Assembly: GCA_900322145.1 (NCBI GenBank)
Contig: ONYQ01000001.1
Location: forward strand, 1 to 52,903
Direction: 5' to 3'
DNA: 52,903 nucleotides
From: an uncultured Eubacteriales bacterium
GTDB lineage: Bacteria; Bacillota; Clostridia; Oscillospirales; Acutalibacteraceae
Below are positions 1 to 52,646 of the stretch, piece after piece. Numbering within the stretch: the first letter of the stretch is position 1; each line of letters starts with the position of its first letter. Position numbers and translations under genes: made by a program. Under the pieces are notes generated by a model. That model was not told the origin of the DNA and did no database searches. It was given only the letters and a program-made list of their open reading frames with translations.

Positions 1-57
1 CGTTTCCTGCCTCCCCTTCAGGGGAGGTGCCGAGCGTTAGCGAGGCGGAGGGGTTCT
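1..57. repeat. GC-rich palindromic intergenic repeat, partial at the window edge (family R2)
   Basis: Hairpin CCTCCCC(10-16)-TTCA-GGGGAGG(21-27), followed by GCCGAGCGTTAGCGAGGCGGAGGGG. Alignable by eye to 44866-44915. Confidence 0.5.
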
Positions 58-123
58 TGTTTTTGTGCAATTTTCAAATTTGCTCATTTATAGCTTGAAT
101 ATTGGGTCGGATTGTTAAAATTC

Positions 124-151
124 ATTATGCATTATGAATTATGAATTATTG
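124..151 (-). repeat. Tandem heptamer array, family 3 (ATTATGC ATTATGA ATTATGA ATTATTG on +; TCATAAT on -)
   Basis: Four imperfect 7-nt units read directly. The array encodes the last murE codons and contains its TAA stop (132-134). Confidence 0.7.
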
Positions 152-1586
152 AATCGATGACTTCACGCTCGTCATAATGAGTTTTAACGCCGTTCTTGTC
201 CTGATAATCTTCATGTCCTTTGCCGGCTAAGACGATAATATCGCCGTCCTGTGCATTTTCGATACAGTAGCGGATGGCATCGGTACGGTCAGGAATGACA
301 ATGTAATTTCCGTTGGTCTTGTGCAATCCGGTTTTGATGTCCTCGATAATATCCATGACGTTTTCAAAACGGGAATTATCCTCGGTAATAACAGACAGGT
401 CAGAAAGGCGGCCGGATACCTCGCCCATTTCAAAACGGCGGTCACGGGGACGGTTACCGCCGGCACCGAACAGGGTAATGAGTCGTTTGGGCTGATATTC
501 CCGTAAAGTGGTGAGGATATTTTCCATGCTGATGGCATTGTGGGCGTAATCAATCAGAAGGGTATAGTGGCCGGGAACATTGACGGGTTCGACACGACCT
601 TTGACCTTGACTTCGTTCAGACCGTCGAGGATATTTTGCTGTGTGACGGGGAAATGACGGCAGACAGCAATAGCGGCCAGAGCGTTATAAGCGTTGAATT
701 TACCCGGAATATCCGCCTTTACCTGCATTGACAGCGCACCGCTGACAGTAAAGCCGACACCGAGATAACCGGCCTGCGAAACTAAATGACTGTCAGAGGC
801 TTTGAGTTCGGCATTTTCGGAGAAGCCGAAGGTTTCCACCGTACAGGTATGATTTTCCAACATTCTCGGATAGGCGGCATCGTCAATGTTAAGAATACCG
901 GTGCGGCACTGACGGAACAGCATCGCCTTGCATTGAATGTATTCTTCCATGTCAGCGTGTTCCACACCGCCGATGTGGTCATGGGAAAGATTAGTAAACA
1001 GACCGTAATCGAAGGTAAAACCGTCGGTTCTGTGCCATTTCAGACCAAGAGAGGAGGCTTCCATGACAACACACTGACATCCCTCATCAATCATACGGCG
1101 CATCGCTTTTTGTATTTCGTAGGATTCGGGGGTAGTGTTGGCGGTTTTGGTAATGGTATCACCGATGATAATGCCGAGGGTACCGATCACGCCGGTTTTC
1201 AGACCGCCCTTTTCTAAGATACTGCGAATCATACAGGCAGTGGTAGTTTTGCCTTTGGTGCCGGTGACAGCAATCGTTTTGAGTGTATCGGACGGATAAC
1301 CGAAGTAAGCGGCGCTCATAAAAGCGAGTGCCTCACGGGTATCGGTGACTTTAATCACCGCCGCACCGGTACACTCGATATCCTTGCTGACAACGACAGC
1401 CGCCGCACCGGCATCAACAGCGGCCTGTGCGTACTGATGACCGTCCGTATTAGCGCCTGCCAGACAGACAAATACACAATTCTTGCATACCTTGCGGGAA
1501 TCGTATATGACATCGGTAATGTCAATATCGGTATCGCCGGACGATACCTCATAGCGGATTTTTGACAGTAATTGTTCGAGTTTCAT
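132..1586 (-). CDS. murE: UDP-N-acetylmuramoyl-L-alanyl-D-glutamate--2,6-diaminopimelate ligase
   Basis: 484-aa ORF with the Mur-ligase P-loop GTKGKTTT and a typical MurE N-terminus. SD AGGGGA lies 8 nt upstream of the ATG. Confidence 0.9.
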   Translation of the reverse strand: MKLEQLLSKIRYEVSSGDTDIDITDVIYDSRKVCKNCVFVCLAGANTDGHQYAQAAVDAGAAAVVVSKDIECTGAAVIKVTDTREALAFMSAAYFGYPSDTLKTIAVTGTKGKTTTACMIRSILEKGGLKTGVIGTLGIIIGDTITKTANTTPESYEIQKAMRRMIDEGCQCVVMEASSLGLKWHRTDGFTFDYGLFTNLSHDHIGGVEHADMEEYIQCKAMLFRQCRTGILNIDDAAYPRMLENHTCTVETFGFSENAELKASDSHLVSQAGYLGVGFTVSGALSMQVKADIPGKFNAYNALAAIAVCRHFPVTQQNILDGLNEVKVKGRVEPVNVPGHYTLLIDYAHNAISMENILTTLREYQPKRLITLFGAGGNRPRDRRFEMGEVSGRLSDLSVITEDNSRFENVMDIIEDIKTGLHKTNGNYIVIPDRTDAIRYCIENAQDGDIIVLAGKGHEDYQDKNGVKTHYDEREVIDSIIHNS

Positions 1587-1823: not shown

Positions 1824-1865
1824 ATTGTACATTGTACATTGCACATTGCACATTGTACATTGATT
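1824..1865 (-). repeat. Tandem heptamer array, family 1 (six units ATTGTAC/ATTGCAC on +; CAATGTR on -)
   Basis: ATTGTAC ATTGTAC ATTGCAC ATTGCAC ATTGTAC ATTGATT read directly. It abuts the TAA stop (1865-1867) of the NUDIX gene. Confidence 0.85.
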
Positions 1866-5527: not shown

Positions 5528-5562
5528 CAATGTGCAATGTACAATGTGCAATGTACAATGAG
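5528..5562 (+). repeat. Tandem heptamer array, family 1 (CAATGTG CAATGTA CAATGTG CAATGTA CAATGAG)
   Basis: Read directly. It starts 2 nt after the leuC TAA stop (5524-5526), inside the leuC-leuD spacer. Confidence 0.85.
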
Positions 5563-7442: not shown

Positions 7443-7470
7443 AGTGTGGAATGTGGAGTGTGGAGTCATC
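7443..7470 (+). repeat. Tandem heptamer array, family 2 (AGTGTGG AATGTGG AGTGTGG AGTCATC)
   Basis: Read directly. On the minus strand it ends immediately 5' of the SD of the 7240-7425 gene. Confidence 0.8.
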
Positions 7471-10019: not shown

Positions 10020-10087
10020 TGGTGTGAAGTTGTGCCATGCACCACCATTTTCAGATATCTGCATGAGTATAAAACACAAGTTTTTTA

Positions 10088-10192
10088 GGAAGGGGGTATG
10101 GGGGATAACCCTTTTTTTCAAAAAAGGGTTTCCCCCAGCGGGGTCAAGGGGCAGAGCCCCTTGTGGGGTTTGGGACAATGCCCCAACATCAA
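10088..10192. repeat. GC-rich intergenic repeat, family R1 (inverted copy at 50139-50232)
   Basis: TTTTTCAAAAAAGGGTTTCCCCCAGCGGGGTCAAGGGGCAGAGCCCCTTGTGGGGTTTGGGACAATGCCCCAACAT aligns by eye with the reverse complement of 50139-50232. It abuts the aguB stop codon. Confidence 0.7.
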
Positions 10193-11049
10193 TAAAGGTC
10201 GGGGCGGCGGTCACGGAAAAGTCCCCAGCTCATGCGGAGATCATAGGCGGCGGAAAGGTCAAGCTCAGCAAGGATGAAGGTTTCGGAGGTTCTGTCGGCG
10301 GATACAAGAATTTCGCCGGTTTCATCGGTGATGAAGGACGAACCGTAGAAACAGAGAGAAGATTTCTGGAAGTTGTTTTCCTCACAGGGAATGACGGATT
10401 CTGTACCGACACGATTGGCGGCTATTACCGGCAGAATGTTGCAGGCGGCGTGCCCCTGCATACAGCGCCGCCAGTGCGGCATACTGTCAACGTCTAAAAT
10501 CGGTTCGGAACCGATAGCGGTCGGATACAGGAGCATATCGGCACCCTGTAAGGCCATCGCACGGGCGGCTTCCGGAAACCACTGATCCCAGCAGATACCC
10601 ACACCGATATTACCGAAACGGGTCGGCCATACCTTGAAACCGGTATCGCCGGGCGTGAAATAGAATTTTTCCTGATAGAACTGGTCATCGGGAATATGCG
10701 CCTTGCGATAGACACCCATAACGGTACCGTCTGCGTCGATCATGGCAATGGAATTATAGGTGTTATTTTTATCACGCTCAAAGAAGCTGACCGGAATGAC
10801 GACCCCCAGACTTTTGGCTACATCTGAAAAACGGCGTACCGCTTTATTTTCCTGTACGGTAGTGGCTAATTTATAATAGCCGTAGTTTTTTTCCTGACAG
10901 AAATATTTTGTTTCAAACAGTTCCGGCAGAAGAATGACATTAGCGCCGTTGGCGGCGGCCTGTCGGACGAGATTTTCCGCCGTAAAGATATTATCCTCCG
11001 GATTACAGCGCATCGCCATCTGAATGGCGGCAACGGTTACTTTTTTCAT
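10189..11049 (-). CDS. aguB: N-carbamoylputrescine amidase (carbon-nitrogen hydrolase family)
   Basis: 286 aa with the CN-hydrolase Cys motif ICWDQWFPE and ILLPELF. It lies 19 nt downstream of aguA on the same strand. Confidence 0.85.
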   Translation of the reverse strand: MKKVTVAAIQMAMRCNPEDNIFTAENLVRQAAANGANVILLPELFETKYFCQEKNYGYYKLATTVQENKAVRRFSDVAKSLGVVIPVSFFERDKNNTYNSIAMIDADGTVMGVYRKAHIPDDQFYQEKFYFTPGDTGFKVWPTRFGNIGVGICWDQWFPEAARAMALQGADMLLYPTAIGSEPILDVDSMPHWRRCMQGHAACNILPVIAANRVGTESVIPCEENNFQKSSLCFYGSSFITDETGEILVSADRTSETFILAELDLSAAYDLRMSWGLFRDRRPDLY

Positions 11050-12658: not shown

Positions 12659-12856
12659 AAAAACTTTTCCCCAAAAGCCGAAAAAGGGTATAATACCCCT
12701 TAACCCATAGAAATCGTTTTGAGCAAATCTGAAAATGGCACAAAAACTTGTCATTCCGAACGCAGGGAGGAATCTTTTTAACGTGAGTGCGATGAAAAAA
12801 ATTTCAGGCAGATAACACCTTCCTCTTTGAGGGAGGTGTGTATATTGTATTGTGCA

Positions 12857-12885
12857 TTGCAAATTGTTCCGGATGGGGGTATAAT
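12857..12885 (+). promoter_or_regulatory. Sigma-A type promoter for the fumarase operon
   Basis: TTGCAA (12857-12862), 17 nt, TATAAT (12880-12885). The -35 lies inside a degenerate family-1 heptamer array. Confidence 0.55.
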
Positions 12886-15699: not shown

Positions 15700-15959
15700 A
15701 AATAAAAGCGATGATGGAAATAAGATACAGCCGTTTGTGCAAAGAGAACCGCCGGTTGGTGTAAGGCGGTGACAATAGCTGTATGGATAGCTCATTCCGG
15801 AGCTTTCTGTCCGAAGAGGATTAAGGCAGAACGGGTGGTTCCGTTACGAACCGGAGCCTTGTCAGAGGCTTACTGAGGGATACTGCTGTATCCGAAATTG
15901 GGTGGTACCACGAGCGAAATGCCCGTCCCATGTCATTTGATTGACGGGGCGGTTTTTTT
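15700..15959 (+). promoter_or_regulatory. T-box riboswitch leader, probable Leu specifier (CUC)
   Basis: AG bulge AGAGA (15743-15747), distal loop GGTTGGTGTAAG, F-box-like CCGTTA (15841-15846) and T-box sequence AAATTGGGTGGTACCACGAG (15895-15914). Terminator GCCCGTC...GACGGGGC plus T7 (15921-15959). Candidate specifier CTC followed by A at 15791-15794. Confidence 0.85.
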
Positions 15960-18751: not shown

Positions 18752-18779
18752 AGTGTGGAATTTGGAGTGTGGAGTTATG
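18752..18779 (+). repeat. Tandem heptamer array, family 2 (AGTGTGG AATTTGG AGTGTGG AGTTATG)
   Basis: Read directly. On the minus strand it ends immediately 5' of the SD (AAAGGAGG) of the glmU-like gene. Confidence 0.8.
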
Positions 18780-25730: not shown

Positions 25731-25764
25731 ATAACTCCACACTCCACATTCCTCACTCCACACT
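25731..25764 (-). repeat. Tandem heptamer array, family 2, inverted (ATAACT CCACACT CCACATT CCTCACT CCACACT on +)
   Basis: Read directly. On the minus strand it starts 5 nt after the polA TGA stop (25770-25772). Confidence 0.8.
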
Positions 25765-25769
25765 TTTAC

Positions 25770-28340
25770 TCAGGTCTTAGCGTCGTACCATGTTTTGCCG
25801 ATACCGGCATCAGCGGTCAGCGGCAGGGAAAGCTGTACGGCGTGTTCCATTTCTTCACTGAGCAGCGCCGCTACTTGCTGCGCTTCCCTTTCGGGGGCTT
25901 CAACAATGAGTTCGTCATGTACCTGAAGAATCAGACGGGCCTGCAGATTTTCTTTCCGTAAGCGGCGGTAAACCCGTATCATGGCAATTTTGATAATATC
26001 TGCCGCCGTACCCTGTATCGGCATATTACGGGCGACACGTTCCCCGAAGGAACGCAGATTTTTATTAGAGGACTTCAACTCCGGCAGATAGCGCCGCCGT
26101 CCGAACATGGTCGTTACATAGCCGTCCTTTTTAGCCTGTTCTACCACATCTTTCATGTAGCGGTCAATGCCGGCATAGAGGGATAGGTAACCTCGTATAT
26201 AGCGGTCGGCTTCTTTCACGGTAACGCCGATATCCTTTGACAGGGAAAAGGCGCTGATACCGTAGACGATGCCGAAATTAACGGCTTTCGCACGACTTCT
26301 CAATAAGGGCGTAATCATATCCGGCGGCAGACCGAATACCTTAGCGGCGGTGGTGGTATGGATATCTTCTCCGCTGGCGAAAGCCTCCAGCATATTTTTA
26401 TCGTTGGCGATATGTGCCAGTACCCGCAGTTCGATTTGTGAATAGTCGGCATCGACTAATACACAGCCTTCTTTAGCGGTAAAGAAGCGCCGCATTTCTC
26501 TGCCACGCTCGGTACGGACAGGAATATTCTGCAAATTAGGCTCGGTGGAACTGATACGGCCGGTACGGGTTTCTGTCTGGTTAAAGCATGAATGGATACG
26601 GCCATCCACGCCGATGACTTTCAGTAAGCCGTCGCAATAGGTGGATTTGAGTTTGGTAAGGGTGCGGTATTCCAGAATGTTATCAATGATCGGATGATAG
26701 GGGCGCAGTTCCTCGAGTACATCCGCATTGGTAGAATAGCCGCTCTTGGTTTTTTTCTTGGCCGGCAGTCCCAGCGTTTCAAATAATATGGCGGCTAACT
26801 GCTTGGGCGAATTGATATTGAATTCACTGCCCGCCTGTTCGTAAATTTGCGCCTGTAAGGTATCTATATCGGTCTGTAATGCCTTGCCGTAATCGCTGAT
26901 ACCCTGACGGTCAGCCTGAAAACCGGCATTTTCCATGTCGGCCAGTACCTCTGCCAAAGGCAGTTCGATATCCTGTAATAAAGCGGTTTGCCCGTTGGCC
27001 GCAATCTTTTGCTGTAAGGCATCCGCTAAGGGAAGGAATGTCCGCAAAGGATTGTCATGTTCACAGGGCAGAGGGGTGATGTTTTCCTCCTGCGCTAACC
27101 GTTCCCGACTGTAATCGGAGGCATTCGGATTCAGCAGATAACCTGCCAGACCGGTATCAAACACAATGGAACGGCATGGAACCGCCGTATATAAAGCTTT
27201 CGCATTGTCGGTGCGTTTGGAGATGGTTTCATCCGCTAACAGCTTTTCCATAAACGGTACAAAGCCCTCTGTCCATGCCTGCAGTTCCCAGATATTCTGA
27301 CCATCCGATAAGGAGGCTGACAGAATATTGCCATCCTCTACCGTTGCCAGCAGGTCAACCGGATGTCCTTTCAATTGTTCGTATAAAGCATTAAGGTCGG
27401 CGGTATCATGATAGGTTAATGTGACAACGGGTTTCTGTTCCTGTACAGGAACAGAAGCAGCGGTTTGTACATTGTCCAGACCGAATTTCGGCAATAGGGT
27501 GTGCAATTCTAAACGCCGCATCATGGCCGCCGCCGCCGGCGGGTCGCCTGCCTGCCGGTTATAATATGACAGGTCGGTGTTAATGGGGGCATCGGTGCGT
27601 ATCGTACCAAGCATACGGCTCAGATAAGCGCTGTCCTTGCCCGCTTCTAATTTCTTTTTCATGGCCGGTTTCAGATCGGGGGCATCCAGATGTTCGTAGA
27701 CCCCTTCCAGAGAACCGTACTTTTGTATCAATTCTCCGGCACCTTTCGGACCGATACCCGCCACACCGGGAATACAGTCGGAAGTATCGCCCTGCAAAGC
27801 TTTGATATCAATCAACTGCGGCGGTGTAACGCCATAGACTTCCTGAATTTTCGCTTCATCGAAAACGGTCACTTCGGGTTTGCCGAATTTGGTAGCCGCC
27901 ATTCTCACGCTGACACACGGGGAAACCAATTGCAGGCTGTCCCTGTCGCCGGTGGCTAACATACATTCACAGCCCTGTTCTGTACATACATGGGCTAAAG
28001 TGCCCAGAATGTCATCCGCTTCAAAGCCTTCACACGTTACGATGCGGAAACCCATCAAACCAAGCAGTTCCTTGAGCGGTGCCATTTGTGCGGCTAATTC
28101 CGGCGGCATTCCCTTGCGGTTAGCCTTATAGCCGTCATACGCTAAATGCCGGAAGGTTGGCGCTTTCAGGTCAAACGCTACCGCTACCGCTTCCGGTGCT
28201 GTTTCACTGAGCAGTTTATGCAGGGTTGTCAGAAAGCCGTAAATGGCATTGGTATATTGTCCGTCCTTGGTGGTCAGCAGTTTGATGCCAAAAAATGCTC
28301 TGTTCAGAATACTGTTTCCGTCAATTACCAGTACCTTCAT
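25770..28340 (-). CDS. polA: DNA polymerase I
   Basis: 5'-nuclease N-terminus MKVLVIDGNSILNRAFFG and polymerase motif A VDADYSQIELRVLAH. The ATG at 28340 has the best SD spacing. Confidence 0.92.
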   Translation of the reverse strand: MKVLVIDGNSILNRAFFGIKLLTTKDGQYTNAIYGFLTTLHKLLSETAPEAVAVAFDLKAPTFRHLAYDGYKANRKGMPPELAAQMAPLKELLGLMGFRIVTCEGFEADDILGTLAHVCTEQGCECMLATGDRDSLQLVSPCVSVRMAATKFGKPEVTVFDEAKIQEVYGVTPPQLIDIKALQGDTSDCIPGVAGIGPKGAGELIQKYGSLEGVYEHLDAPDLKPAMKKKLEAGKDSAYLSRMLGTIRTDAPINTDLSYYNRQAGDPPAAAAMMRRLELHTLLPKFGLDNVQTAASVPVQEQKPVVTLTYHDTADLNALYEQLKGHPVDLLATVEDGNILSASLSDGQNIWELQAWTEGFVPFMEKLLADETISKRTDNAKALYTAVPCRSIVFDTGLAGYLLNPNASDYSRERLAQEENITPLPCEHDNPLRTFLPLADALQQKIAANGQTALLQDIELPLAEVLADMENAGFQADRQGISDYGKALQTDIDTLQAQIYEQAGSEFNINSPKQLAAILFETLGLPAKKKTKSGYSTNADVLEELRPYHPIIDNILEYRTLTKLKSTYCDGLLKVIGVDGRIHSCFNQTETRTGRISSTEPNLQNIPVRTERGREMRRFFTAKEGCVLVDADYSQIELRVLAHIANDKNMLEAFASGEDIHTTTAAKVFGLPPDMITPLLRSRAKAVNFGIVYGISAFSLSKDIGVTVKEADRYIRGYLSLYAGIDRYMKDVVEQAKKDGYVTTMFGRRRYLPELKSSNKNLRSFGERVARNMPIQGTAADIIKIAMIRVYRRLRKENLQARLILQVHDELIVEAPEREAQQVAALLSEEMEHAVQLSLPLTADAGIGKTWYDAKT

Positions 28341-33690: not shown

Positions 33691-34890
33691 ATGAAAATTC
33701 TCGTCATCAATGCAGGCAGCTCTTCCATGAAGTATCAGCTCATCGACATGACAGACGAAAGCGTTCTGGCAAAGGGTAACTGCGAAAGAATCGGTATTGA
33801 CGGTCACTTCAAACACAGCACCGGCGATGGCCGTGTGTTTGAAACAGATGTTACCATGAACAACCACACCGAAGCATTTGTACAGATCAAAAATGCTCTT
33901 ATCAGTGAGGAATACGGCGTAATCAAGTCCCTTGATGAAGTATCGGCTGTCGGACATCGTATCGTGCAGGGCGGTTCCCTGTTCAGTGAATCCGTTATTG
34001 TTACCGAAGACGTTATCAAGGGTATTGAGAGCCTGATTCCGCTGGCACCGCTGCACAATGCCGCTCATGTACAGGGCATTCGTGCTTGTCTGGAAGTATT
34101 CGGTGACAAGGTACCGGAGGTTGTTGTATTTGATACGGCTTTCCATTCCACTATGCCCGAAAAGGCCTTTATCTATCCCGTACCCTATGAGTATTATGAA
34201 AAATATGCTGTTCGCCGCTATGGCTTCCACGGTACTTCTCACCGCTATGTTTCCGGCCGCTGTGCGGAACTCATGGGCAAGGATATCAAGGATATCAAGA
34301 TCATTACCTGTCACCTCGGCAACGGTTCTTCCATTACCGCTGTCAACGGCGGCAAGGTCGTTGATACCAGTATGGGTCTGACACCGCTCGATGGTATTAT
34401 GATGGGTACCCGTACCGGTTCTCTTGACCCATCTGTTGTTACCTTTATTGCGGAAAAAGAGCATATCAGCGCAGAGGATATGGACATCCTGCTCAACAAG
34501 AAATCCGGTTTCCTCGGTATTTCGGGTGTTTCTTCCGATGACCGTGATGTTACCGCAGCCGCAGAAGCCGGCAACAAGAGAGCGCAGTTGGCGATTGATA
34601 TTCTTGAATATGACATTCTGAAGTACATCGGCAGCTATACCGCTGTACTGGGCGGCGTGGATGCTATCGTCTTTACAGCCGGTATCGGTGAGAACCAAAG
34701 CTCCCACCGCAGTAAGGTCTGCCATGCTCTTGAATACATGGGCGTGAAGATCGACGATACTCTCAATGAGCAGATGATCCGTGGCAAAGAAGGCAAGATT
34801 TCTACCGATGATTCTACAGTAGCGGTCTATGTCATTCCCACCAACGAGGAACTGGTTATTGCCCGTGATACCATGGCACTCGTAAAATAA
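33691..34890 (+). CDS. ackA: Acetate kinase
   Basis: 399 aa. MKILVINAGSSSMKYQL and the GFHGTSH motif. SD AGGAGG. Confidence 0.93.
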   Translation: MKILVINAGSSSMKYQLIDMTDESVLAKGNCERIGIDGHFKHSTGDGRVFETDVTMNNHTEAFVQIKNALISEEYGVIKSLDEVSAVGHRIVQGGSLFSESVIVTEDVIKGIESLIPLAPLHNAAHVQGIRACLEVFGDKVPEVVVFDTAFHSTMPEKAFIYPVPYEYYEKYAVRRYGFHGTSHRYVSGRCAELMGKDIKDIKIITCHLGNGSSITAVNGGKVVDTSMGLTPLDGIMMGTRTGSLDPSVVTFIAEKEHISAEDMDILLNKKSGFLGISGVSSDDRDVTAAAEAGNKRAQLAIDILEYDILKYIGSYTAVLGGVDAIVFTAGIGENQSSHRSKVCHALEYMGVKIDDTLNEQMIRGKEGKISTDDSTVAVYVIPTNEELVIARDTMALVK

Positions 34891-34922
34891 TGTACAATGT
34901 GCAATGTACAATGTACAATTGC
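34888..34922 (+). repeat. Tandem heptamer array, family 1 (TAATGTA CAATGTG CAATGTA CAATGTA CAATTGC)
   Basis: Read directly. The first unit contains the ackA TAA stop. Confidence 0.85.
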
Positions 34923-35097: not shown

Positions 35098-35122
35098 TGC
35101 ACATTGCACATTGCACATTGAT
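35098..35122 (-). repeat. Tandem heptamer array, family 1 (minus strand ATCAATGTG CAATGTG CAATGTG CAA)
   Basis: CACATTG x3 on + at 35100-35120. It abuts the GH13 TGA stop (35123-35125). Confidence 0.85.
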
Positions 35123-36790
35123 TCAGTCGTCTATTTTCTCAAAACGGGGGACTTCCTTGCCGTCTACATTGACATACTGATAGAAAATAGCAGAAGGTCT
35201 TGCCCAGATAGCGCCGTCACCGTAGAGGGCTTTGTAAATTACCAGTTCCTCTGAGGTTTCGCTGTCCTTTGCCAGACAGACAAATTCATATTCGCCGCCC
35301 TTGAAATGGCGATACTTACCCGGTGTGCCAACCGCCGGCAAAGGCTTGCGTTCTTCCTGTACCGGTGCCGGTATCGATTCCGTTTCAGCAGGTACGCTGA
35401 CATTCTCACGGACAGGAGCGGTCTGTGCATCATCGGGATAAGCCGGCGCTTCCCCATCGGTCAATACCAATACACGGGTGCCGTAGGCAGGAATGTTGAT
35501 ATTGACATAATTATTCTGTACATCATAGACAGTCTTACCGTCATAAACATCATACAGTTTGGTACCGTTATCGGTGCGGAAACCAATATCGAAGGCATTT
35601 TCGCCGAGGTTCAGGGCAACATATACGCTCTGATTCTCAAAGCGGCGCTTGAATACTAATTGTTCATTCCGGATAACGGTATTTTCAAAGCTGCCATACT
35701 GGAGTGCCTTGTATGTTCTGCGAACAGCACCTAAACGGCATACATGGCGGTACAGGGCGTTATCCTCGCAATCATCCACGTTCACACACGGACGCAGCGG
35801 ATAATCATATTCGGTACGGCTTTTCTGCCCCTTGATACCCCATTCACTGCCATAATACACAGACGGTACACCCGGCATGAAATAAACGGTGGAAAAAGCA
35901 TTTTTCAGATGTTCGGGATTACGCAGAGTACTGGCCAGACGGTTCACGTCATGGTTATCCACAAAGTTATAAGTATAGATATTGTGATAAATGCCGCCGT
36001 TGGCAAACTGACGGTTAAGAGAATGAGCAATCTCAAAATAGTTGCGGTCATTGTGGGAGGAATAGATACCCTTATAGCACTCATAGTTCGTGCAGGAATC
36101 CAGCAGATCGGGATTCGCTAAACGGGCATAGTCACCGTGAATGATCTCACCCATGAGCCAGAATTGGTTATCACGGCTCTTGCAGAAATGTTTCAGCTCC
36201 CGCAGGAAATCCTGATCCATACAATAAGCAACATCCAGCCGCAGGCCGTCAATTTTAAATTTGTCCATCCACATGGCGACAGCATCAAAGATATGCTTTT
36301 TAACATCCGGATGACGCAGATTCAGCTTGACAAGGTCATAGTTACCTTCCCAGCCTTCATACCAGAAAGGATCCCCCCACGGACTGCTGCCGCCAAAGTT
36401 CAGATTCTGGAACCATGAGCAGTACGGCGAGGACTGGTGATTCTTCCGCACATCTTCAAATGCCCAGAAGCCTCTGCCGACATGATTGAATACACCGTCC
36501 AAAACGACTTTGATACCGTTTTCATGCAGAGCCGCACAGATTTTGGCAAAACTTTCGTTATCTCCGAGACGGTTATCTATATGATAATAGTCGTTGGTAT
36601 CATATCCGTGAGTGGTGGACATAAACACAGGGCCGAAATAAACGGCATTGACGTGCATCTCCTTGAGATGGGGAATAAAGTCGATGACCTTATTCAAACG
36701 GTATTCCGTTTTGCCGTCATTGACTCTCGGCGCACCGCAGAAGCCCAGCGGATAGATGTGGTAAAAAACTGATTCATTGACCCAATACAT
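35123..36790 (-). CDS. Cytoplasmic GH13 alpha-amylase-family glycosidase fused to a C-terminal DUF1653-like domain
   Basis: GH13 regions DGLRLDVA, GEIIHGD and FVDNHD; no signal peptide. C-terminal GKYRHFKGGEYEFVCLAKDSETSEELVIYKALYGDGAIWARP matches the DUF1653 pattern. ATG at 36790 is preceded by AAAGGAAAG. Confidence 0.8.
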   Translation of the reverse strand: MYWVNESVFYHIYPLGFCGAPRVNDGKTEYRLNKVIDFIPHLKEMHVNAVYFGPVFMSTTHGYDTNDYYHIDNRLGDNESFAKICAALHENGIKVVLDGVFNHVGRGFWAFEDVRKNHQSSPYCSWFQNLNFGGSSPWGDPFWYEGWEGNYDLVKLNLRHPDVKKHIFDAVAMWMDKFKIDGLRLDVAYCMDQDFLRELKHFCKSRDNQFWLMGEIIHGDYARLANPDLLDSCTNYECYKGIYSSHNDRNYFEIAHSLNRQFANGGIYHNIYTYNFVDNHDVNRLASTLRNPEHLKNAFSTVYFMPGVPSVYYGSEWGIKGQKSRTEYDYPLRPCVNVDDCEDNALYRHVCRLGAVRRTYKALQYGSFENTVIRNEQLVFKRRFENQSVYVALNLGENAFDIGFRTDNGTKLYDVYDGKTVYDVQNNYVNINIPAYGTRVLVLTDGEAPAYPDDAQTAPVRENVSVPAETESIPAPVQEERKPLPAVGTPGKYRHFKGGEYEFVCLAKDSETSEELVIYKALYGDGAIWARPSAIFYQYVNVDGKEVPRFEKIDD

Positions 36791-50232: not shown

Positions 50233-50284
50233 ATGTTGTTGATAGGAAAAGTTTTTCCTACACTAAGAAATCTGTTTTTCAATC

Positions 50285-50305
50285 ATTGTACATTGCACAT
50301 TGTAT
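50285..50305 (+). repeat. Tandem heptamer array, family 1, orphan copy (ATTGTAC ATTGCAC ATTGTAT)
   Basis: Read directly. It is not adjacent to any stop codon and directly abuts the duplicated promoter module. Confidence 0.75.
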
Positions 50306-52354: not shown

Positions 52355-52646
52355 AATGAAGTGACTGCACAGATATGCGATGAAGCGGGAGGTTGCGGCT
52401 GAAACAGGCCGGTTTTTCCGTGGAGTATGTCCGATTTTAAACCGGGCGAAAGAATATTTTTTGATGGAGCAAACAGACCTGAACCTAAGAGTTGCAAGGC
52501 CGGGGTTGTTATGCGCCAATTTTCTCAAAGCCTTACCCGGGGATGCGTTGTCATCACCGGATTTTTAAAAGAGTTGCGAGAAACACCCGGAAGGGTGTAG
52601 AGGAATTGAGAGAACGCCCGCCAACTACAATAAGGAGGCGATGAAC

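Follow-up and report, generated by a model that had tools for sequence, protein, structure and literature searches.

Tandem heptamer arrays behind stop codons in a rumen Clostridia genome, and their possible origin as arms of spacer-filling elements

The window analysed here is a stretch of 52,903 nt that corresponds to contig C165 of a rumen Clostridia metagenome-assembled genome (MAG G000; 1.93 Mb in 178 contigs, 47.8% G+C, 81% completeness). This genome holds about 250 tandem arrays of 7-nt units, which show a marked preference for starting right behind a stop codon, in the sense of the gene that ends there. The explanation that we favour, with some reserve, is that these arrays are the arms of spacer-filling elements, complete or one-armed, of the heptamer-repeat class, with forms that carry a PF05635 gene elsewhere in the genus and gene-less forms here. 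Bacterial heptamer repeats have been known since 1990 and are over-represented, and this genome provides an unusually clean case of them, with an array at about 7% of its genes and a strict polarity of 75 to 0.

Position and polarity of the arrays

A sequence-only reading of the window had placed four CAATGTR arrays after the NUDIX, leuC, ackA and GH13 genes, in the sense of the upstream gene, and all four were confirmed. The first (1824..1865, minus strand; five units plus a terminal CAATTGCG) starts 2 nt past the NUDIX TAA (1865-1867). The second (5528..5562, plus strand; four units plus a terminal CAATGA) starts 1 nt past the leuC TAA and is the 5' portion of an approximately 90-nt insert within the leuC-leuD spacer. 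The remaining two form a convergent pair whose arms are separated by 177 nt and run in the sense of their respective genes: the left arm (34888..34922, plus strand) has a first unit, TAATGTA, that includes the ackA TAA, and the right arm (35098..35122, minus strand), read as TGA-AT-(CAATGTG)3, starts 2 nt past the GH13 TGA (35123-35125). The terminal sequence that the same reading saw in two copies was also found, as the NUDIX and ackA arrays both end in CAATTGCG. Neighbouring genes were checked with Pfam as NUDIX, aconitase (LeuC/LeuD), Mur ligase, acetate kinase, GH13 alpha-amylase and PolA.

Other units are represented in the window as well. A TAATTCA/TAATGCA array (124..154, minus strand) encodes the last murE codons and supplies the TAA stop; it seems to replace the original MurE C-terminus, since the alignment of murE to its relatives ends about 23 nt before the stop. 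An array of GGAGTGT, GGAATGT and GGAGTGA units (25734..25764, minus strand) starts 5 nt past the polA stop (25770-25772). Two GGAGTGT-family arrays belong to a second, rarer configuration, in which an array of opposite sense ends in ...CATTGAT directly before the Shine-Dalgarno (SD) sequence of a gene, at distances that cluster at 16-25 nt. The one at 7443..7466 (plus strand) lies just outside the SD sequence, with its 5' end 17 nt from the start codon of a minus-strand gene of 61 aa, and the one at 18752..18775 (plus strand) lies 19 nt from the start of a minus-strand nucleotidyl-transferase gene. A decayed CAATGTR-like array (12844..12869, minus strand; identical in eight strain contigs) is located just upstream of the fumarase gene, and an orphan CAATGTR array of 2.7 units (50284..50302, minus strand), detected by both the pattern scan and TRF, adjoins no gene end. 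TRF recovered the other CAATGTR arrays of the window too. Allowing one mismatch, the two-unit CAATGTR pattern has 14 matches in the window vs 0.06 expected (0 of 100 shuffles).

At the scale of the whole MAG, 125 exact arrays with at least two units were counted. TRF returned 310 rows of period 7, compared with 7, 44, 84 and 50 rows for periods 5, 8, 10 and 11, respectively. By family, the period-7 rows include 114 of CAATGTR, 62 of GGAGTGT, 22 of TAATGCA and 32 of GAGGAGT, AGGAGTT and GGAGTTT taken together. Their density amounts to 160 rows per Mb, vs 42 per Mb, nearly all of them two-unit matches, in control Clostridia contigs, which are metagenome relatives retrieved with AckA at no more than 76% identity.

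Positions were related to genes called by a simple heuristic codon-score ORF caller (1568 genes, 85% coverage). Among 200 oriented intergenic arrays, 75 start in sense at most 5 nt past a stop codon, and none does so in antisense. When array lengths were kept and spacer, position and orientation were randomised, the expectation per sense was 2.7 ± 1.6, with a maximum of 8 in 1000 simulations. The fixed orientation and the stop-codon start proposed from the window thus hold genome-wide. Up to 70 nt behind stops, the four families add up to 124 sense vs 15 antisense arrays, and arrays of at least 21 nt that start no further than 12 nt past the stop are found at 107 of 1456 genes (7.3%). A stop-codon start in gene sense is true of every unit family in the MAG. 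Moreover, one rule covers both configurations: with the array read as CAATGTR, it is the 5' end that adjoins the neighbouring gene. This polarity is set by the gene and not by replication, because the convergent ackA and GH13 arrays each follow their own gene.

The arrays are strongly biased towards non-coding DNA, with just 6-7 of 76-114 CAATGTR arrays inside ORFs called by the heuristic caller. About 198 spacers of the MAG bear arrays, 157 of them a single one; among the spacers with two arrays, 27 are convergent and 0 divergent (binomial p = 1.5e-8). Terminators were found at a frequency of 42% with arrays vs 37% without, and hairpins follow the array ends at widely varying distances, both results coming from a hairpin finder that also caught the arrays' own hairpins. 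When the flanks were searched for larger shared sequences by all-against-all BLAST, mainly other arrays were retrieved.

Several accounts of this layout were tried and rejected. Circularisation of the mRNA would require a gene to have an antisense 5'-UTR array able to pair with a sense array behind it, and 0 of 20 cases showed this. Birth of the array from the stop codon itself does not agree with a register that is not fixed with respect to the stop, offsets of 0, 1, 2 and 4 being all common. Finally, no duplicated triplet was present at the two ends of the arrays, as a target-site duplication or a MITE with a TNA target would require.

Array anatomy and variation between strains

The families of the MAG (CAATGTR, GGAGTGT, TAATKCA and GGAGTKA) all fit the consensus N-A-R-T-K-N-R. 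When spelled in one register they read CAATGTR, GAATGTG, GAGTGTG, GAGTGAG, GAGTTAG, TAATGCA and TAATTCA, so that neighbouring families are one substitution apart; mixed arrays exist. G-tracts are lacking in CAATGTR and TAATKCA, and GGAGTGT has only GG. The arrays are free of stop codons and spurious ORFs run through them, as had been noticed from the window.

A sharp, conserved 3' end characterizes the arrays, unlike their gene-side (5') end, which is degenerate. In 115 of 120 CAATGTR arrays the last full unit is followed by CAAT and then G or T, with CAATGA in 44 of the 120, and 30 of 70 GGAGTGT arrays have a GGAGTTG terminus. Independent local births would not be expected to leave the same partial terminal unit at more than 100 loci. 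Lengths measured from the stop codon to the array end have a single peak, and their median is 34 nt in CAATGTR and GGAGTGT-type arrays alike. Scored as A-type or G-type, neighbouring units match each other in 39.7% of pairs vs 50.1% by chance (4 of 2000 shuffles), and slippage by one unit would give more identical neighbours, the opposite of what is observed. Together with the recurrence of one unit and one terminus at more than 100 loci, this supports the earlier suggestion that alternating units set these arrays apart from simple slippage microsatellites.

CAATGTR arrays with at least four units are predicted to fold into an imperfect hairpin of 11 bp, and no comparable structure is predicted for the other families. 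The sense strand of CAATGTR arrays also holds TGTACA-N17-TACAAT, which scores 9/12 on a sigma-70-type consensus scan (1831-1859, minus strand; 34891-34919, plus strand). A reading of the arrays as promoters was rejected as not general, since the GGAGTGT family has nothing similar.

A composite mini-element is present in at least ten copies in the MAG, among them C88:5985-6078, C104:12816-12908, C150:6569-6675 and C97:19448-19558. It is formed by a CAATGTR (or TAATGCA) arm, CAATG, a conserved 37-nt core, ATTATTTCCTAAGGGAAAGAAGTGTGACCGCCGCACA, which contains two small hairpins, and an inverted GGAGTGT arm. In the predicted folds the arms are not paired with each other, with the CAATGTR arm folding on itself and the ACUCCAC arm remaining single-stranded. 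An IVS-like stem does not appear to apply to the mini-element, given that its arms, of different families, do not pair in these folds. Arm pairs of the same family, which could pair, are found at ackA/GH13 and on contigs C87, C24 and C114; the commonest pairing is that of CAATGTR and GGAGTGT arms. In the transcript, the second arm of the mini-element reads (ACUCCAC)n, a C-rich and unstructured sequence that resembles a candidate Rho loading site.

Variation was followed in same-species contigs from independent rumen metagenomes, with overlapping sets of samples (95.9-99.9% identity, 7 to 10 per locus). The NUDIX array has five units in seven strain contigs, four in two, and two in the most divergent strain (96% identity). 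The leuC array is invariant in 18 strain loci except for one base change in L149, and unit number is constant in the nine strain contigs covering the murE array (124..154), with one base change in L297, as well as in every strain contig covering the array at 7443..7466. Unit number changes in 7-nt steps, but slowly, and the arrays are therefore not contingency loci. With three of four arrays invariant in 9-10 strain contigs (96-99.9% identity) and sites behind the stops of housekeeping genes, they also depart from phase-variable contingency SSRs. Strain-variable copy number without positional bias had been named as evidence against the sequence-only reading; the first part was found at one of four arrays (5, 4 or 2 units), but the positional bias stands. 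With 7 to 10 strain contigs read at each locus, no empty/filled site polymorphism was detected, so that mobility is inferred here rather than shown.

Some irregularities of assembly coincide with the arrays. Several contigs of the MAG break near arrays, and in an NCBI assembly of the same species (L144) the sequence past the NUDIX array jumps to a TATAAATGAGCAAATTTGAAAATTGCACAAAAAC repeat, skipping murE, probably by a mis-join. This dispersed repeat, (C)TATAAATGAGCAAATTTGAAAATTGCACAAAAAC, is often found directly after an array (window 15-97; C13:5115-5150, C44, C51).

Distribution in the genus and the PF05635 cassette

CAATGTR arrays of at least three units were detected in 16 of 61 genomes of the genus and are abundant in six of them. 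GGAGTGT-type arrays occur in 21 of the 61 and in 12 of the 16 CAATGTR carriers. In a single-gene leuC tree the carriers are scattered, with at least five changes, and three of them have well-supported array-free sisters. The sister genome of the MAG, G054, has 0 pattern matches vs 156 in the MAG. The leuC-leuD spacer measures 111 nt in the MAG and mostly 15-35 nt in relatives without the array, and just 3 of 30 orthologous gene ends have an array in five other carrier species. Outside these genomes, exact (CAATGTR)4 was found in rumen MAGs labelled Ruminococcus or Acutalibacteraceae, and in Bacteroidota, Ignavibacteria, Myxococcota and others; 28 of these loci abut a stop in sense vs 4 in antisense.

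Another repeat of the window, at 10056-10195, is a hairpin-rich sequence of about 100-140 nt (GGGGGATAACCCTTTTTTTCAAAAAAGGGTTTCCCCC ... GGGGCAGAGCCCC ...) that gave 66 BLAST matches in the MAG, corresponding to fewer distinct copies, and dozens in G052, G054 and G060. Many of its copies lie at most 5 nt from a stop codon in a fixed orientation, and in G054 a repeat of this type follows the leuC stop, where the MAG has its CAATGTR array.

The family PF05635 (S23p/IVS), of four-helix-bundle proteins, is encoded in 29 of 60 genomes of the genus, with one to four copies in each. At 24 of the 32 loci that were read, the gene is part of a cassette with the order sense array, SD sequence, four-helix-bundle gene and inverted array, placed between the stop of one gene and the SD sequence of the next; five other loci have both arrays upstream and three have no clear layout. 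The two arms of the cassette are exactly the two array configurations of MAG G000. CAATGTR arms were found in G005 (about 19 and 11 units), G046 and G023, and other arms are made of TAATGCA, AGAGTGG, GGAATGA/GGAGTGA, GGAAAAT or GCTCAGA units. These are unit families that are dispersed in the respective genomes. Arm length in full cassettes ranges from 3 to 19 units.

Presence of the gene is associated with that of the arrays. It was found in 14 of 17 genomes with at least four pattern matches vs 11 of 36 with none (Fisher p = 9e-4; Spearman rho = 0.50), in a comparison that treats kin genomes as independent and counts only two unit families. Five of the 11 "zero" genomes with the gene were read, and their cassette arms are built of other units. 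Of five sister contrasts on the leuC tree, four follow the prediction, and the one between the MAG and G054 is a tie at zero. HMM and tblastn searches with the proteins of relatives revealed no PF05635 gene or remnant in MAG G000, which is only 81% complete and for that reason does not prove the absence, nor were four-helix-bundle remnants found between its paired arms. The gene was not found in the array-rich MAGs G016 and G050 either, all three MAGs being 76-83% complete. In other genomes, an HMM built from this genus alone located a four-helix-bundle gene near CAATGTR arrays at only 2 of 109 loci. The protein from G005 matches the five-chain PDB entry 2RLD (E = 3.5e-33), and the S23p protein of X. 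campestris is a homopentameric toroid (PMC4990558). PF05635 also resembles Avd, the accessory protein of DGRs (PMC10053308).

The long-armed CAATGTR cassette of G005 (L337, C10:70400-73000) is located directly upstream of an intact tmRNA gene (770-1120, minus strand of L337; tag DKTKTVALAA). On its far side the cassette repeats the first ~19 nt of the tmRNA in inverted form, so that a long stem reaching into the tmRNA 5' end could arise in the precursor. Other cassettes of the genus adjoin tRNA genes.

Origin of the arrays and known heptamer repeats

The sequence-only reading had proposed a 3'-UTR protein-binding platform, a DNA iteron or the footprint of an insertion process that targets stop codons. 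Evidence from the cassette arms of the relatives leans towards a spacer-colonising element. Such an element would fill an intergenic spacer with two inward-facing arrays, the outer (5') ends of its arms being placed against the genes on either side. An arm at the 3' end of a gene would then appear as a stop codon, 0-5 nt and a sense array, and an arm at the 5' end of a gene as an antisense array followed by the SD sequence. Only gene-less forms were seen in the MAG, namely solo arms and the mini-element of CAATGTR arm, 37-nt core and GGAGTGT arm. This reading accounts for polarity, for both configurations, for the rule of convergent pairs and for the terminal unit that the arrays share, but not for their arrival behind stop codons, the predominance of solo arms or the 7-nt period. 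The solo arrays cannot be put down to decay of cassettes, as they far outnumber cassettes in carrier genomes. We infer that the arrays spread as an element or via a cassette-encoded factor, rather than by local origin, that they are probably co-transcribed as 3'-UTR sequence, and that most copies are likely near-neutral passengers. A more specific proposal, which we regard as speculative, would make the arrays the cis sites bound by the pentameric PF05635 (S23p/Avd-like) protein, with one unit per subunit, and would have the protein or a process dependent on it seed or maintain arrays at the first ribosome-free nucleotides behind stops. If true, this would explain the over-representation of 7-nt repeats across bacteria and assign a function to the orphan S23p family.

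It seems rather doubtful that the arrays are instead an RNA element of the 3' UTR beneficial to the host, a platform for an oligomeric RNA-binding protein or the ribosome that tunes mRNA stability, termination or ribosome release. Their strand specificity and stop-codon start are consistent with such a role, and so are the single mode of stop-to-end length (median 34 nt in two families), the mostly stable unit number between strains, the conserved terminal unit, the SD-like GGAG of GGAGTGT and AGGAGTT, and the predicted 11-bp hairpin of CAATGTR arrays with at least four units. However, the same housekeeping genes are without arrays in the sister species and across most of the genus, different carrier species have their arrays at non-orthologous genes, it is the opposite strand that enters the 5' UTR in the second configuration, and no structure is common to all families. 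Ordinary microsatellites, born by chance through replication slippage and surviving only in the short gap behind a stop, are very improbable. Although the NUDIX array is polymorphic in 7-nt steps and loops of 7 nt probably escape mismatch repair, this explanation is largely refuted by the repetition of one unit and one terminal partial unit at more than 100 loci, by the 75-to-0 orientation and by neighbouring units that are alike less often than chance, as well as by the lack of arrays in the sister species and the 42 period-7 rows per Mb of control Clostridia vs 160. A published proposal that attributes heptamers to the polymerase footprint, as cited in PMC4692102, counts in favour of slippage.

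That the arrays are DNA iterons, duplex sites for a repeat-binding protein that would form a boundary or roadblock at gene ends, appears unlikely to us. In their favour, the 7-bp period is constant across unit families and the arrays flank a gene whose product may be the binder. Examples of such a binder would be an omega-type RHH protein or the pentameric four-helix-bundle protein. The median length of about five units is in line with the pentameric nature of the PF05635 family (PMC4990558; 2RLD, five chains). On the other hand, a polarity that follows each neighbour gene even at 177 nt apart is more natural for a transcript- or insertion-linked rule, no such protein was seen in the MAG, and cassette arms vary from 3 to 19 units.

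The preferred reading as spacer-filling elements can be set beside several repeats already described. Dispersed intergenic tandem arrays with several heptamer families per genome are also formed by the STRR heptamers of heterocystous cyanobacteria, which differ in phylum and in their units; to our knowledge, no stop-codon rule has been described for them. They were reportedly described by Mazel et al. in 1990, as cited in PMC4692102. The view of the sequence-only reading that no described element class matches was therefore wrong, the STRR being joined by the GGGAATC repeats of Xanthomonas and GGGGAYT repeats of Nostoc (PMC4692102) and by TAACTGA (PMC4679880). Rehm et al. (2015) reported GGGAATC in Xanthomonas and GGGGAYT in Nostoc PCC 7120 as heptamers at hundreds of intergenic sites, and the class was thus already known, since these repeats show the identical dual pattern (PMC4692102). 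Like the arrays of the MAG, they favour about four units per array, seldom occur between divergent genes and lack a known function (PMC4692102). In contrast to the G-rich, G-quadruplex-forming unit that defines them (PMC4692102), CAATGTR and TAATKCA are not G-rich, and the stop rule in our rumen Clostridia host is sharper (at most 5 nt; 75 to 0). The one structural explanation published so far, based on G-quadruplexes, cannot be general, because the main units of the MAG are unable to form them.

The TAACTGA direct repeats described by MacGregor (2015) in Beggiatoaceae, Cyanobacteria and Bacteroidetes resemble the arrays in being intergenic, gene-oriented, patchy across phyla, of 2-6 or more units and mixed with other heptamers, and in being missing from the shorter spacers of close relatives (PMC4679880). 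However, they are mostly found just upstream of start codons in forward orientation, their unit contains stops, and no link to a flanked gene was drawn (PMC4679880). In the 23S rRNA IVS of Coxiella burnetii, Warrier et al. (2016) described an S23p ORF within inverted terminal sequences, excised by RNase III, with tandem heptamers in strain-variable number directly upstream of the ORF (PMC4990558). The cassettes of the genus share this layout of a PF05635 ORF between inverted sequences with heptamers upstream. Unlike the IVS, located inside the 23S rRNA gene, the arrays of the MAG lie behind protein-coding genes, are mostly solo and have no S23p gene in sight. REP/BIME (REPIN) sequences are likewise short, abundant, extragenic, patchy between species, mainly at gene 3' ends and often in inverted pairs, but they are single imperfect palindromes, not tandem heptamers, and have a RAYT transposase as partner. 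Neither a Y1 (HUH) transposase (PF01797, RAYT) nor a reverse transcriptase (PF00078) was found in the MAG.

Beyond what is known of the class, the present data add the slow change in unit number, the patchy spread in the genus, the exclusively convergent pairs, the bracketing of PF05635 and the association of arrays with the gene. The convergent-pair rule, the conserved terminal unit and the PF05635 bracketing in sister species make the question experimentally approachable. In practical terms, the arrays seed spurious ORFs, shift stop-codon calls, as in murE, and break short-read assemblies. No Rfam family was matched by the arrays, and in the window the Rfam search identified a T-box leader at 15702-15933 (118.9 bits) and an S10-Clostridia ribosomal-protein leader, which supports a clostridial host, at 52372-52449 (49.8 bits).
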